Shown one piece after another: positions 4,337 to 51,407 of a stretch of DNA of 64,000 nt. A model generated the notes under the pieces. It was not told where the DNA came from and did not search any database. It saw nothing but the letters and a program-made list of their open reading frames with translations. Position 1 is the stretch's first letter, and each line of letters opens with the position of its first letter. Source of the stretch: Planctomycetia bacterium TMED53 (GTDB taxonomy: Bacteria; Planctomycetota; UBA8108; UBA1146). Made by a program: the position numbers and the translations under genes. The stretch lies in assembly GCA_002167285.1 (NCBI GenBank), contig NHDG01000117.1:67133-131132 (forward strand). The letters run 5' to 3'.

Positions 4337-4451
4337 CCCCCCTGTGGAGAGTCGCTAACATCGTGCCTTGCCCAAATCTTCAAGGGGAAAAACTGACAGC
4401 CTGTCCCGCTGCGGTTTTTGAAGATCGGGGAACCCCGGGAGGAGATGTCCC

Positions 4452-9993: not shown

Positions 9994-10776
9994 GTGGTCA
10001 TGAGAATCGCTTCCTTGACCTGCTCCAACACCGAGATCGTTTGCGCCTTGGGGATGTCCCATCTCCTCGTCGGTGTCGATGATCATTCGGACCATCCGGT
10101 AGGCCCGTTGGAACCTCTCCCCAGGTTGGGCCCTGATCTGTCGATAGATCTTGATCTACTTGCAGAGCTGAAACCGGATTTGACCCTCGCCTCTCTGACT
10201 GTTCCTGGTCATGAAAAGGTGGTCGAAGGAGTCTCCCAGTTGGGTCTCGATCACATCGCTCCAGACCCCCGTAGCATCGCTGACATCCTTAGGGACATTC
10301 GCGAAATCGCTTCGTTATTAGAGGTCCCATCTCGGGGTGAGGCGCTCGTGGGCTGGATGCAAAGAGGGTTGGAGCCGCTTCCGCAAGAGGAGCTGCCGAT
10401 TCCGGTTCTCGTCGAGTGGTGGCCGAAACCGGTATTCGTTCCGGCGCGATTTTCCTGGGTGAATGAGATGTTGATTCTGGCCGGGGGATTCAATCCTTGG
10501 GCACAAGATGAAGGTCATAGCAGGGCCGTGACACCCGAAGAGGTTAAAGAACATGACCCGGAAGCGGTGGTGATCTCTTGGTGTGGTGTGGATTTTCATA
10601 ACTACAAAACGAACAAAGTGATCCAGCGGCCCGGCTGGGATTCGGTCTCTGCCGTTCTCAAAGAACAGGTTTCCGCAATTCCTGAAGCTTACATGGGCAG
10701 GCCAGGGCCACGCATCGTCGAGGGGGTTCGAAGGCTCAGGAAGGTGATCTGCTCGGCGAATTCGAGAACTCCCTGA
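9994..10776 (+). CDS. BtuF-like periplasmic-binding-fold (helical-backbone, cobalamin/metal-binding) protein with no obvious signal peptide
   Basis: RIASLTCSNTEIVCALG..LVGVDDHSDHP and ...VISWCG... resemble class III SBPs. The start may be ATG 10000. Confidence 0.65.
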   Translation: MVMRIASLTCSNTEIVCALGMSHLLVGVDDHSDHPVGPLEPLPRLGPDLSIDLDLLAELKPDLTLASLTVPGHEKVVEGVSQLGLDHIAPDPRSIADILRDIREIASLLEVPSRGEALVGWMQRGLEPLPQEELPIPVLVEWWPKPVFVPARFSWVNEMLILAGGFNPWAQDEGHSRAVTPEEVKEHDPEAVVISWCGVDFHNYKTNKVIQRPGWDSVSAVLKEQVSAIPEAYMGRPGPRIVEGVRRLRKVICSANSRTP

Positions 10777-10869
10777 GGCTCTGTGGGAATCTTTCATTTG
10801 CAGGGCATAATGACGCGGTGTAGAGCTCCCGTTGAGCTCTGTATTGTTGGAAATTTACTGGAGAATTTG

Positions 10870-11217
10870 ATGAAGAAAATTGACTGGTGGTATCACCGTA
10901 ACGGTTGAACATCTTGTAAGAGAGCTCAGGAGTTCCTGGGTGACGAAGTGAATGTGAAAGAACAGGTCGACGCTAAGAAGGTTCGTCTGGGTGTAGATGA
11001 GGCGCTGGAAATGGCCTCAAAGGCAAGCAAGGTCATCGTTGCCCGCGGTAAAAAATTCGTGGAGCACGACATGAAGAAGGATCGTCCTTCTGATGAGGAT
11101 CTCGCCAAAGGGATCATCGGCCCGAGCGGAAATTTACGTGCGCCAACTTTGTTGGTGGGCAAAAAAATGTTGGTGGGCTTTCATGAGGAAGCCTACACCG
11201 ATGTGATCGTTAACTGA
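10870..11217 (+). CDS. ArsC/Spx-fold redox protein, probable selenoprotein (in-frame TGA 10906-10908 read as Sec in a U-T-S-C motif)
   Basis: ATG 10870 is preceded by GGAG (10859-10862) and is in frame with track ORF 10948-11217. The only stop is TGA at the CxxC-equivalent position. The C-terminal part GNLRAPTLLVGKKMLVGFHEEAY is ArsC-family-like. Confidence 0.6.
10924..10941 (+). promoter_or_regulatory. Candidate bacterial SECIS-like hairpin
   Basis: gctcagg / loop agtt / cctgggt gives a 7-bp stem including G-U pairs. It starts 16 nt after the TGA. The apical loop has G at its second position. Confidence 0.4.
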
Positions 11218-11229
11218 GGGCAGGTTTGA

Positions 11230-12099
11230 GTGGGAATCTTTGATCGTGATTACATGCGAGATAGCAGCGGAGGCGGCGGCCCATTGAGTCGGTTCACCGG
11301 CCTGCAGCTGATACTCGGCATCAATGTCATCGTCTTTATTGCCTGGCATGTTTTACCCAAGAGTATCATGGGCCTCAATTTCCTGACGAGCATGACTCAT
11401 CTCAAGGAGGGTTATGTTTGGACTTTGGTCACTTCGGCATTTTCCCATTTCGATCTATGGCATTTTTTGATCAACATGCTGGTCCTTTACTCTTTTTCAG
11501 CTCCTCTGGAAGCCAGGTGGGGGAAGAAGCGATATCTTCTCTTCTATCTCGGAGCTGCACTCTTCTCCTCGATTCTCCACTGCAGCATGGTTTTCTTTGG
11601 ATTCAGGGATGTTCCTGCACTGGGAGCGTCCGGCGCGGTATGTGCCATGACCACTGCTTTCGCCATCTACTACCCTAAAGCGATGATTTATCTTTGGGGA
11701 ATTCTGCCTGTGCCAGCATGGCTCTTGGTCGGTGGGTTTGCTCTCTTTGATATCAAGGGTCTCATGGATCAAGCTGGCGGTGGTGGGGGAAACATCGGGC
11801 ACGCTGCTCACCTGGGTGGGACCGTTTTCGCTTTGATCATCATCGGGTTGTTGGCGGGCAACTTATTGCCCAAAGGCAGCCGCGCCAACACCACGGTTCG
11901 TCGGATGACTTCGGCGACGGGTCGAGCTCCTGCTGATTATTACCCTCAGCAGCAGCCAAGGCCGGAGAGGGATATTTCTGAAGAAATACTCCTCGATGAA
12001 TTGCTGACCAAGGTCAGTCGGTCGGGGATGGATTCCCTAACTGATCAGGAGAGGGATGATCTTCGGCGCATCGGTGAAAAGCGCAGGAACGATTCTTGA
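11230..12099 (+). CDS. Rhomboid family intramembrane serine protease
   Basis: FSHFDLWHFLINM, catalytic GASGAV, AHLGG, multiple TMs. GTG start. Confidence 0.9.
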   Translation: MGIFDRDYMRDSSGGGGPLSRFTGLQLILGINVIVFIAWHVLPKSIMGLNFLTSMTHLKEGYVWTLVTSAFSHFDLWHFLINMLVLYSFSAPLEARWGKKRYLLFYLGAALFSSILHCSMVFFGFRDVPALGASGAVCAMTTAFAIYYPKAMIYLWGILPVPAWLLVGGFALFDIKGLMDQAGGGGGNIGHAAHLGGTVFALIIIGLLAGNLLPKGSRANTTVRRMTSATGRAPADYYPQQQPRPERDISEEILLDELLTKVSRSGMDSLTDQERDDLRRIGEKRRNDS

Positions 12100-12449
12100 C
12101 CTGGTTTTCATCTCTGAAGAGATTTTTTCGTCAAAGAAAACTTCGCCAACAAGCTCGTCGTGAATTGATGAATATCTTTGAGTCTGAAGAGAACCTGCGT
12201 GGGACCTCTCTCAAGCTGCACCATCGGGGACGCTGCGACATCGTCGAGTTGGAAGCGAATGGGGAGCTCGTCGCCTTTACTTTTCAGATCCTGCGGCACC
12301 CTCGTCCCCATCCCTTTTCGAAGCAACACCACTTGGTGGCGGAGAGATGGCGTTACGACATGGTCGAAAAAACCCTCGAGCGAGCGGGATCGGTCAATTT
12401 GAGTCGATTAAGAGGTAGAGATGGCGAGCCGCCCGGGTCTTTTCCTTGA
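12096..12449 (+). CDS. Hypothetical protein (117 aa)
   Basis: Open frame whose TTG start overlaps the rhomboid stop. No motif recognised. Confidence 0.3.
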   Translation: MTWFSSLKRFFRQRKLRQQARRELMNIFESEENLRGTSLKLHHRGRCDIVELEANGELVAFTFQILRHPRPHPFSKQHHLVAERWRYDMVEKTLERAGSVNLSRLRGRDGEPPGSFP

Positions 12450-27736: not shown

Positions 27737-28003
27737 ATGACGCAGCGAAAAGCCGGGAGCCTCTTGGCAAGACTGTTTCTTGGAATGATTCGCTTTTACC
27801 GCTCCGTCATATCTCCTCTTCTTCCTCCACTCTGTCGATTTGAACCGACGTGCAGCTGTTATGCGGCAGAAGCGATTCAAACTCACGGGGCATTTCGTGG
27901 ATTGAGAATGACCATCTGGAGATTATTGAGATGCCATCCGTTTTCGCGGGGAGGGTATGACCCTGTCCCTGCACCTAAGGAAACAAAATCAAACCATCCC
28001 TGA
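27737..28003 (+). CDS. yidD: Membrane protein insertion efficiency factor YidD
   Basis: [33 protein letters not shown]...[16 protein letters not shown]. Confidence 0.9.
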
Positions 28004-28024
28004 AACTGCTATTGAAGAATGGTT

Positions 28025-28045
28025 TATAAAGTATAAAGTATAAAG
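28025..28045. repeat. Three tandem copies of TATAAAG, flanked by the inverted repeat aactgct/agcagtt
   Basis: tataaag at 28025, 28032 and 28039. aactgct (28004-28010) and agcagtt (28044-28050) are reverse complements. Confidence 0.8.
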
Positions 28046-48845: not shown

Positions 48846-48958
48846 TTAGGGTCTCCAATTCTTCCAGGGGCTCGGTGCCATCAACGACACCATCTGGCAT
48901 CGGAACAGACTTTGAACGCAGGGTCACTGCAGTTTCGACTCTGTTCCCTTGGACTCAA

Positions 48959-48984
48959 TGATTGACTCACTCTTTGATTGACTC
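48959..48984. repeat. Direct repeat tgattgactc x2 separated by 6 nt
   Basis: Copies at 48959-48968 and 48975-48984. A related ttgactc occurs at 49202. Confidence 0.7.
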
Positions 48985-49706
48985 TCGGACGATCTGCAAC
49001 TCCGGGATTCGAATTTCGGGGAAACTCACGGACATCCCAAGTTCAGCAGAAGTGCGGGATTCTAGACCGTTGATCGCAGAGCGGCAAGGGTCCCGGGGAT
49101 GGCTTTCTTGGCATTCTCACCAGGCTCAGTAGGGCTGGGGTCCCCGGGAAGGGGGAAAGATCTCCAATGAGGGGGGGGGAAATGTCGATTGTGGGGCTTT
49201 CTTGACTCTGAACAGGGATCTTTTACGATCACGGGTTGACGGATCATTCCGCAGGAGTCCTGTCAGCCCCAGAGTGCCGGATACGGCGGCCCAGGTCGTT
49301 TTTCACGGATTCTTGGATTTTGGTGACGTGTTCGGTATTTCCTTCGCCATCAGATTTTGTCGGAGGTATCGAAAGTTCCAGTCCAAGTCCTCGATTTGGG
49401 AGTCTGTAGTTTTTGGCTCTTGGGGAGAATTTGGTGTTCAGGAGGTGTCCCATGCTCCTGTTCCACGGAACTCAAAATTTAGGTGCTCGGTTTGGTTGGA
49501 CCCCAAATTGATATGAATCGATTTGGGTGAGCTTGATCGTCGGCTGGGAAATGGGTCCAACCGATGAAATAGTTCAGTTTGTTTTTCCGACCATTGAATC
49601 AGTGCTCTGCTTTGTGTGGGCAGTTTGCTGGTATGGCGAGTGCGAAGTGTGTGCGGCGTGAATTCTGTCCTCGATTGAATCGTAGCCCTGCAAGGGAAGG
49701 CCACGC

Positions 49707-51407
49707 ATGAAGAAAAAAGTCGGAGAAATTCTGCGCGAAAAGGGTTGGGCCAGCGAAGAGCAGATTGATAAGGCTCTTGCTTATAGTAAAGCGGAGAACT
49801 GCCGGTTGGGAGAAGCTCTTCTCAACCTTGAGCTCTGCACCCAGGAGCAGATCACCAGAGCCCTTGCCATTCACCACCAGCTTCCCTTTGCCAATCTTGG
49901 TAAGCATGTGATCGCCCAGGAAATTATCGATCTCGTTCCCAAGGAAGTCGCTATCGAGAACCAGATCATTCCGGTAGCAAAAAAGGGTGAGCGTCGATTG
50001 GTGGTGGCGATCGGCGACCCAGACGATTACGCATTCAAGCTCGACAACATCCGCTTTATTCTCGGCCTCGATCTCGATTGTGCCCTGGCGATGCCGGATG
50101 CTGTCGAGGAGGCTCTCGACGATTACTATCGCCTTGCGGGGGGGTATGACTCGGTTCTGGGTGAAGACGCCGGATCTGACGACGACGTCGAGTTTGGGCG
50201 CGGTGATTACGCAGGCGACGATTCCGACGCCAACGATGCTCCGGTGATCAAGCTGGTACACATGATCATCGCTAATGCGCTCAAGGCAGGGGCCTCGGAT
50301 ATTCACGTCGAACCGATGGAGCACCATCTTCAGGTGCGGTACCGGATCGACGGTGTTTGCCAGGTGATGGATTCACCGCCCAAAAAACTGCAGGGTCCCG
50401 TCCTCTCCAGGGTCAAGATCATGGCTCGAATGGACATGGCTGAAAAACGTAGGCCCCAGGACGGTCGTATCAAGATCAAAATCCAGGGTAAAGAGATCGA
50501 CCTTCGTGTGTCAGTGATTCCTACGGTTCATGGCGAGAGCATCGTCATGAGGATTCTCGATAAAGACGCCGGGCTGGTCGATCTGGAGAAGCTGGGATTC
50601 CACGAAGGTGACCTCAAAAGGTTCAACCGCATCATCAAGCGACCGAATGGAATCTTCCTCGTCACCGGACCGACCGGTTCAGGTAAGACGACGACCCTTT
50701 ACTCAGCACTGATGAACTTGAACAAGCCTGACACAAAAATCATTACCGCGGAGCACCCGATCGAATACAACCTCACCGGTATCAACCAGTCCGAGGTGAG
50801 ACACGAGATCGGGCTCGACTTCTCGCGGATCCTTCGAGCGATGATGCGTCAGGCGCCCAATATCATTCTCGTTGGTGAGATTCGAGACCGGGAAACCGCA
50901 GACACCGCGATTCAGGCGGCGCTGACAGGCCACTTGGTCTTCTCGACCCTTCACACCAATGACGCACCTTCTGCGCTGACGCGACTGATCGATATGGGCG
51001 TGAAGCCCTTCCTCGTCGCTTCAGCAGTGCTTTCCATCATGGGACAGCGCTTGATACGTAAGCTCTGCTCCGAGTGCAAGGAGCCTTACGAGCCGGCTGA
51101 GACAGAGTTGCGCATGATCGGCCTGACGATGGCAGAAGTTCAGGGGCAAGAGATCTTCAGGCCTGTGGGGTGTGCAAAGTGCTCCGGCGGCTACAAAGGT
51201 CGACTCGGAATTTACGAGCTTCTTGAAATGTCGGGAGACCTTCGCGATCTGACCTTCAAAAAGGCGGTTTCGAAAGATCTCAGGAACAAAGCGCGCAGCG
51301 AGGGAATGGTGACTCTGCAGGAGGACGCCGTCAGAAAGCTGCTTGCAGGAATTACCTCCGTTGAGGAGATCCTCCGTGTGACGCACTCCTCGGAGTTTGC
51401 CGGATAA
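49707..51407 (+). CDS. GspE/PilB-family secretion/pilus assembly ATPase with an MshEN-type N-terminal domain
   Basis: Walker A GPTGSGKTTT, Walker B IILVGEIRD, His box TGHLVFSTLHTN, tetracysteine CSECK...CAKC. The N-terminus has VGEILREKGW..EQIDKAL and RLGEALLNLEL..EQITRAL. Confidence 0.9.
   Translation: MKKKVGEILREKGWASEEQIDKALAYSKAENCRLGEALLNLELCTQEQITRALAIHHQLPFANLGKHVIAQEIIDLVPKEVAIENQIIPVAKKGERRLVVAIGDPDDYAFKLDNIRFILGLDLDCALAMPDAVEEALDDYYRLAGGYDSVLGEDAGSDDDVEFGRGDYAGDDSDANDAPVIKLVHMIIANALKAGASDIHVEPMEHHLQVRYRIDGVCQVMDSPPKKLQGPVLSRVKIMARMDMAEKRRPQDGRIKIKIQGKEIDLRVSVIPTVHGESIVMRILDKDAGLVDLEKLGFHEGDLKRFNRIIKRPNGIFLVTGPTGSGKTTTLYSALMNLNKPDTKIITAEHPIEYNLTGINQSEVRHEIGLDFSRILRAMMRQAPNIILVGEIRDRETADTAIQAALTGHLVFSTLHTNDAPSALTRLIDMGVKPFLVASAVLSIMGQRLIRKLCSECKEPYEPAETELRMIGLTMAEVQGQEIFRPVGCAKCSGGYKGRLGIYELLEMSGDLRDLTFKKAVSKDLRNKARSEGMVTLQEDAVRKLLAGITSVEEILRVTHSSEFAG

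Follow-up and report, generated by a model that had tools for sequence, protein, structure and literature searches.

Does the TGA codon at 10906-10908 end a short reading frame in Planctomycetia bacterium TMED53, or is it decoded as selenocysteine (Sec) inside a longer gene? The codon lies in a 64-kb stretch of the genome, which is referred to here as the window. Read directly, the + strand holds a gene of 115 codons and a stop at 10870-11217, opened by ATG 10870. The sole interruption between this ATG and GTG 10948 is the in-frame TGA 10906-10908, which is codon 13, and the frame is otherwise open up to TGA 11215-11217, the real stop of the gene. GTG 10948, which is in frame with ATG 10870, is the start of an 89-aa stop-to-stop ORF. 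A preliminary description of the window, which had proposed a selenoprotein gene overlooked by ORF calling, placed the ATG, the TGA, and the GTG ORF correctly. It was right as well that a GGAG precedes the ATG, and only the position needs to be changed, since the motif occupies 10860-10863 and not the claimed 10859-10862, a shift of one base to the right. Based on the evidence presented below, we conclude with high confidence that 10870-11217 is a genuine selenoprotein gene of the ArsC family, cut short by gene finders because its Sec codon, TGA, is read as a stop. The features of the locus, each with the evidence for it, are the following.

10860 to 10863, + strand: Shine-Dalgarno sequence GGAG, 6 nt 5' of ATG 10870; read directly from the sequence.
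10870 to 11217, + strand: full CDS of a very probable ArsC-family selenoprotein with Sec at codon 13; translation, NF041106 and Pfam ArsC matches, tblastn matches across the TGA.
10870 to 10905, + strand: 12 N-terminal codons, MKKIDWWYHRNG, comprising strand beta1 and missed by gene callers; codon-position pattern, IDWYYHRxG in 80 loci, P0007 model.
10906 to 10908, + strand: very probable UGA Sec codon; TGA/Cys alternation and alignment with Cys in homologues.
10906 to 10917, + strand: U-T-S-C redox motif, codons 13-16; translation, with Sec as the first residue.
10924 to 10941, + strand: putative SECIS hairpin GCUCAGG-AGUU-CCUGGGU, spanning codons A-Q-E-F-L-G; minimum-free-energy fold and comparison with relatives.
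10948 to 11217, + strand: 89-aa ORF of the public records, regarded here as a truncation artefact; P0001 entry.
11119 to 11145, + strand: family signature GPSGNLRAP, residues 84-92; columns mostly invariant, and the rest nearly so, across homologues.
11230 to 12099, + strand: rhomboid-family protease gene, starting 12 nt after the selenoprotein stop; Pfam Rhomboid match.

Translation through the TGA from ATG 10870 gives MKKIDWWYHRNG, the interrupting codon, and then TSCKRAQEFLGDEV..., with the residues after the TGA beginning TSCKRAQEFLG. For profile searches of this 115-aa protein, the TGA was read as Cys. The protein matches the NCBIfam model NF041106 (ArsC_rel_Se_1), named 'ArsC family (seleno)protein', with 137 bits where the curated cutoff is 85 (E = 3.3e-40), and the match runs end to end, from residues 4-109 of the protein onto positions 1-107 of the 107 in the model. 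The [U/C]xxC that the model calls for is present as U-T-S-C at codons 13-16. Pfam ArsC (PF03960) is likewise matched by the read-through protein, with 30.4 bits (gathering score, 24), and inclusion of the N-terminal 26 residues is required to exceed this score. The 89-aa form falls below it with 21.1 bits (E = 4e-4) and reaches ArsC positions 12-77 only. The protein misses the cutoffs of the NCBIfam models for Spx/MgsR, the RNA-polymerase-binding regulators (NF002459, 29 bits; NF009210, 24.5 bits; NF009885, 20.8 bits; cutoffs 123-159) and is therefore not Spx. TIGR01617 was matched with 24 bits against a cutoff of 75.

Within NF041106, the window gene is a plain member with no difference of substance except for its truncated public record, and at the Sec position its relatives carry either Sec or Cys, which fits the '(seleno)protein' of the family name. 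It follows that the family, the recoding mechanism, and the SECIS type are all already known. The preliminary description had mentioned earlier reports of ArsC-family selenoproteins, and these can be found in NF041106 itself and in two surveys by Zhang et al. In 2005, an 'Arsenate reductase (COG1393)' selenoprotein family of 14 Sargasso Sea metagenome sequences was described by Zhang, Fomenko, and Gladyshev together with a SECIS figure (PMC1088965), and in 2006, 'ArsC-like' selenoproteins were tabulated in bacterial genomes and listed in Deltaproteobacteria, with too few Planctomycetes genomes to judge that phylum (PMC1794560). The window protein is likewise an ArsC-family (COG1393/ArsC-like) selenoprotein, the 2005 set is also marine, and in both that set and the window a SECIS, putative in our case, lies downstream of the in-frame UGA. 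The host of the window gene differs in being a planctomycete, and the subfamily is presumably the same as the published one.

A search of 5.8 billion proteins returned 37 relatives, most of which are fragments of 76-93 aa. The best of them, P0001, is 99% identical to the window protein over the shared part and is the public record of the gene itself, deposited as 'hypothetical protein CBC13_11340 [Planctomycetia bacterium TMED53]' with 89 aa. Six homologues are full length (P0007, P0009, P0010, P0011, P0014, and P0015) and carry Cys exactly at the TGA position, in the pattern IDW[YSLF]Y[HF]R..C..C with IDWYYHRNG before the Cys. Homologues thus do possess the N-terminal extension that had been predicted for them, in the form IDWYYHRNG-C-xx-C. 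When GTDB genomes, one for each species, were scanned with the family alignment, 538 relatives were confirmed and 80 loci retained. These come mostly from Planctomycetota MAGs, with some from Bdellovibrionota, Obscuribacterales, Binatia, and others. The motif IDWYYHRxG is conserved in the 80 loci, and the tblastn matches in the 80 genomes run from residue 1-4 across the TGA. At the codon aligned with the TGA, 65 of the 80 loci have TGA, 15 have TGC or TGT, and nothing else occurs. Alternation with Cys alone is the signature of Sec, and the expectation that Cys or Sec would align with this codon was borne out.

The occurrence of Cys forms in relatives, together with the fact that TGA is one substitution away from both TGC and TGT, raises the prospect that a Cys codon was mutated in a pseudogene or misread as TGA during assembly. 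The TGA is present in all six independently assembled contigs that carry the window gene, from which we consider sequencing error and a pseudogene to be excluded. The count of 65 out of 80 species argues in the same direction, as do the intact flanking protein, the lack of any other frame disruption, and a downstream hairpin that co-occurs with TGA and not with Cys codons. We regard a damaged or misread Cys codon as exceedingly improbable.

Translation of the stretch upstream of the UGA was analysed from the pairwise differences per site at each codon position among 27 close relatives. In the 12 codons before the TGA, the differences at positions 1, 2, and 3 are 0.077, 0.093, and 0.349, and in the 13 codons after it they are 0.091, 0.150, and 0.408. 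In the 30 nt 5' of the ATG they are ∼0.67 in all three phases, that is, saturated. Most close relatives have GGAG or GGGAG at a similar distance before the start codon, amid DNA that is otherwise unalignable. The gene therefore begins at ATG 10870, 5' of which only the GGAG escapes saturation, and its codons ahead of the TGA are translated. The suggestion that the upstream 36 nt are coding therefore holds, with the differences concentrated at third positions.

These data bear on the simplest alternative, in which TGA 10906 terminates translation, GTG 10948 opens the functional 89-aa protein, and the 12 upstream codons are a leader or non-coding. Every gene caller output the 89-aa form, which is how the gene is called on each contig carrying 10870-11217; this part alone does match ArsC, if weakly (E = 4e-4), and Sec machinery was not seen in the ∼82 kb covered. 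Against a true stop, both the 12 codons upstream of the TGA and the 13 between TGA and GTG are under clear coding constraint in the 27 relatives, the Cys-form homologues are full length, and a GGAG-type site precedes ATG 10870 while none is visible just 5' of GTG 10948. Moreover, the 89-aa form would be without beta1, the redox motif, and most of alpha1, besides scoring below the Pfam gathering threshold. The preliminary description had argued that the short form lacks the N-terminal element of the fold, and the strand at 6-9 and the helix at 14-25 in the model of the homologue P0007 do fall in the missing part. Termination at codon 13 is thus very unlikely, and decoding as Sec remains the preferred reading.

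Recoding of a bacterial UGA as Sec depends on a SECIS element, which has been described as a stem-loop that directly follows the UGA and carries G in its small apical loop (PMC1088965). In the window, the hairpin GCUCAGG-AGUU-CCUGGGU at 10924-10941 forms seven pairs, including two G-U pairs, and belongs to the minimum-free-energy fold. The stem is separated from the UGA by 15 nt and the loop by 22 nt, so that the loop starts 23 nt after the UGA; the published consensus for bacterial SECIS elements has 16-37 nt between UGA and loop. On its own, the window hairpin is unremarkable, with z = -0.07 for a 66-nt stretch against dinucleotide shuffles and with 6.5% of synonymous recodings folding as well as the window sequence. 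As the fold of the window alone is no better than chance, its significance rests on comparison with relatives.

This comparison separates the TGA forms from the Cys forms. For the 36 nt after the codon, the median is -11.3 kcal/mol in 67 TGA forms versus -5.6 in 15 Cys forms (Mann-Whitney p = 2e-4), and the hairpin is weak or absent in the latter. In 44 of the 67 TGA forms versus 4 of the 15 Cys forms, the native sequence equals or exceeds 95% of its synonymous recodings in stability, and recodings that fold as stably as the native sequence make up a median fraction of 0.025 and 0.355, respectively. A loop that lies 22-23 nt from the UGA and contains G was found in 50 of 66 distinct TGA-form sequences. 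Both the comparison of TGA with Cys forms and the shuffle controls ignore phylogenetic kinship and are therefore treated as strong evidence, not formal proof.

Among the relatives (L031-L086, first 50 nt after the TGA), at least three forms of the hairpin can be distinguished. Class A, formed by the window and 25 relatives, has the consensus GC[C/U]CAGG-AGUU-CCUGGG[N] with a stem of 6-7 bp and 22 nt to the loop. Over its 26 sequences, 94.5% of cells are paired as compared to 57% or less in slid controls, and one pair shows a compensatory G-C to A-U double change. The hairpin nucleotides of this class are nearly invariant, third positions included, whereas the flanking codons vary freely, which shows a constraint at the RNA level. 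Class B (∼24-27 sequences, from more distant TGA forms) has the consensus CGCAAG[A/G]-G[U/G]U-[U/C]CUUGCG with a stem of 6-9 bp, and its register is shifted by one relative to class A, giving 23 nt to the loop. Here 86.6% of cells are paired versus 64% or less in controls, three pairs show compensatory changes (A-U/G-C in nine sequences, G-C/U-A in two, and C-G/G-U in three), and the covariation score was reached by none of 500 shuffles. Class C has a longer, bulged stem with a loop of CUC, UUC, CUG, or UUG ∼27 nt from the UGA; three of its minimum-energy loops are of the CUC/UUC type, without G. In a few TGA forms the hairpin is no more than weak; one of these is L072, which comes from a Drouetiella cyanobacterium.

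Covariance searches against Rfam gave no SECIS or other match for the whole window at gathering thresholds, and no match for 10860-11000 at E <= 10. When set beside the bacterial SECIS of the E. coli fdhF type and the consensus of Zhang and Gladyshev, the window element shares its position as a stem-loop within the coding sequence 3' of the UGA and its small G-containing loop. It differs in its short stem, 7 bp with two G-U pairs, in having no similarity to curated RNA families, and in the three or more registers (classes A, B, and C) found among relatives of the gene. The proposal that 10924-10941 conforms to the loose bacterial SECIS model has gained from the analysis: the hairpin is present in the minimum-free-energy fold, and across the relatives it is more stable than recodings and Cys forms and carries compensatory changes. 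Taken together, the comparisons, which leave kinship aside, make a strong case short of formal proof that this hairpin acts as a bacterial SECIS.

One remaining question is whether the UGA could be read without a Sec system, either as Trp or Gly under an alternative code or as Cys by near-cognate read-through. Three database relatives, P0022, P0024, and P0034, do carry W at the Sec position (GWTTC, GWTSC, and GWVSC), and no Sec machinery was observed in the window and ∼9 kb to each side. The W residues are most likely TGA codons that a pipeline or gene caller translated under genetic code 4, which is also the simplest account of them. Among 45 coordinate-verified genes of the window, TGA ends 29, the selenoprotein gene included, with 10 ending in TAG and 6 in TAA, so the code is the standard one. 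TGA is thus the normal and preferred stop of the window, which means that its recoding at codon 13 has to be confined to this site and to depend on context. In addition, the codon alternates with Cys alone, and a conserved hairpin is needed for recoding of the SelB type and not for a change of code. We consider decoding without Sec highly improbable and retain Sec as the residue at codon 13. The mRNA itself would carry two UGAs, the recoded one at 10906-10908 and the terminating one at 11215-11217.

The genes of the Sec machinery were sought in the vicinity. ARAGORN found no tRNA at all in the 64-kb window, hence no tRNA-Sec, and no tRNA-Sec in 60 related loci. Pfam tables covering the window and a further ∼9 kb on either side contain no SelA, SelB, or SelD; they list typical planctomycete genes, such as PSCyt1/PSCyt2/PSD1, DUF1501, type II secretion, and the pyruvate dehydrogenase complex. 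For a multi-megabase genome, the absence of selA, selB, and selD from ∼82 kb carries little weight in either direction. Complete Sec machinery has been reported in some Planctomycetes (PMC4807772). A scan of the window for in-frame TGA codons gave 180 raw candidates and no second selenoprotein gene, and the intergenic gaps held none. The most promising candidate, a 'CGFU' at 4419-4421, was rejected as a second selenoprotein; it lacks an upstream start codon, and ATG 4452 is preceded by a strong GGAGG.

For insight into the structure, we turned to an AlphaFold model of the Cys homologue P0007, which is 57% identical to the window protein and was modeled from a 30-sequence alignment; the model thus describes the homologue and not the window protein. 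It has a mean pLDDT of 93.3 and a pTM of 0.86, and consists of beta(6-9), alpha(14-25), beta(33-35), alpha(43-51), and beta(55-60) in the first half and beta(63-68), alpha(76-83), beta(94-97), beta(100-103), and alpha(107-114) in the second. Cys13 of P0007, the equivalent of Sec13, sits between strand 6-9 and helix 14-25, in keeping with the placement of the U-x-x-C motif in the beta1-loop-alpha1 position by the preliminary description. The model also has a beta-hairpin at residues 55-68.

In a fold search with the P0007 model, the best PDB matches were Spx, YffB (1rw1), SACOL0876 (2m46), and ArsC-related proteins, followed by glutaredoxins. The arsenate reductases 3f0i and 3rdw, from V. cholerae and Y. 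pestis, appeared at ranks 15-17, below Spx and YffB. Superposition on Spx/YffB gave a TM-score of only ∼0.55 with an rmsd of 7-8 Å. A profile search of the PDB was carried out with the family profile (A1), the first row of which is the window protein with Cys in place of Sec. It returned Spx, YffB, and ArsC-related proteins at E values of 1e-7 to 1e-4, and its alignment pairs the first Cys of the Spx CxxC with the Sec position and the Spx LRRP with the invariant LRAP. No chain of the R773-type ArsC was found at E <= 1 in the PDB sequence search. The subfamily therefore has the overall fold of Spx, YffB, and ArsC-related proteins (PF03960; 1z3e, 6gho, 1rw1, and 2m46), with the N-terminal CxxC of Spx aligned with its UxxC, and it differs from them in its distant sequence similarity (profile E ∼1e-7), its TM-score of ∼0.55, and the beta-hairpin seen at 55-68 in the P0007 model. 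Judging from this model, the ArsC fold may be present in a variant form in this subfamily. The product is most likely a small selenol/thiol oxidoreductase, and nothing supports arsenate reduction specifically.

The gene context is conserved as well. The rhomboid-family gene lies directly downstream of the selenoprotein gene in all 25 class-A relatives (L007-L032), an arrangement that is kept while the identity of the rhomboid protein to those of the relatives falls from 82% to 32%. Upstream, 18 of the 25 have a Peripla_BP_2 gene. The selenoprotein and rhomboid genes, 12 nt apart, are probably co-transcribed, and the arrangement Peripla_BP_2/selenoprotein/rhomboid may be a conserved operon. A scan for promoters and terminators across 10600-12300 gave nothing above shuffle expectation. 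The 93-nt spacer from the end of the Peripla_BP_2 gene at 10776 to ATG 10870 holds a perfect 7-bp inverted repeat, AGAGCUC-CCGUU-GAGCUCU, at 10822-10840 on the + strand. This repeat, which the terminator scan did not flag, could serve to terminate the upstream gene or form a structure in the leader. The 30 unconserved nt 5' of the ATG overlap it by one base only.

Two other features of the window were observed. An 861-nt stretch at 48846-49707, flanked by a gene of 194 aa and the first of the T2SSE ATPase genes, has no convincing ORF and no Rfam match at gathering thresholds. An ORF at ∼27737-28036 (+), which follows the gene for the RNase P protein and is missing from the table of gene calls, appears to resemble the membrane-insertion factor YidD.

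Based on these analyses, our current model for expression of the gene is as follows. Translation would start at ATG 10870, behind the GGAG at 10860-10863, and the ribosome would pass UGA 10906-10908 without terminating. The hairpin at 10924-10941 would recruit SelB·GTP·Sec-tRNA(Sec) for the insertion of Sec, and UGA 11215-11217, which has no such hairpin context, would terminate. The predicted product is a protein of 115 residues in the ArsC/Spx/YffB branch of the thioredoxin fold, with Sec13 in U-T-S-C at the start of helix alpha1. This protein would most likely cycle between a reduced form and a Sec13-Cys16 selenenylsulfide.

The gene reveals neither a new mechanism nor a new family, and the corrected annotation for the TMED53 MAG and many relatives is the only new element. 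The 89-aa 'hypothetical protein' entry should become a 115-aa ArsC-family selenoprotein. Dozens of planctomycete MAGs share the truncation, and the fragments of 76-93 aa make up most of the homologues in the database. If the W entries do stem from translation under code 4, the family is mis-annotated in a second way. The conserved pairing of selenoprotein and rhomboid genes hints at a functional link, a speculative one that is suggested by the annotation of neither gene. That the Sec-containing ArsC-like protein serves as a dedicated redox partner or switch for the rhomboid intramembrane protease in this planctomycete clade is doubtful, although it is a specific form that such a link could take. 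More broadly, the finding implies that a marine Planctomycetia lineage and many of its relatives decode UGA as Sec. Such a lineage would therefore depend on selenium, and its Sec decoding bears on the use of selenium in the ocean.
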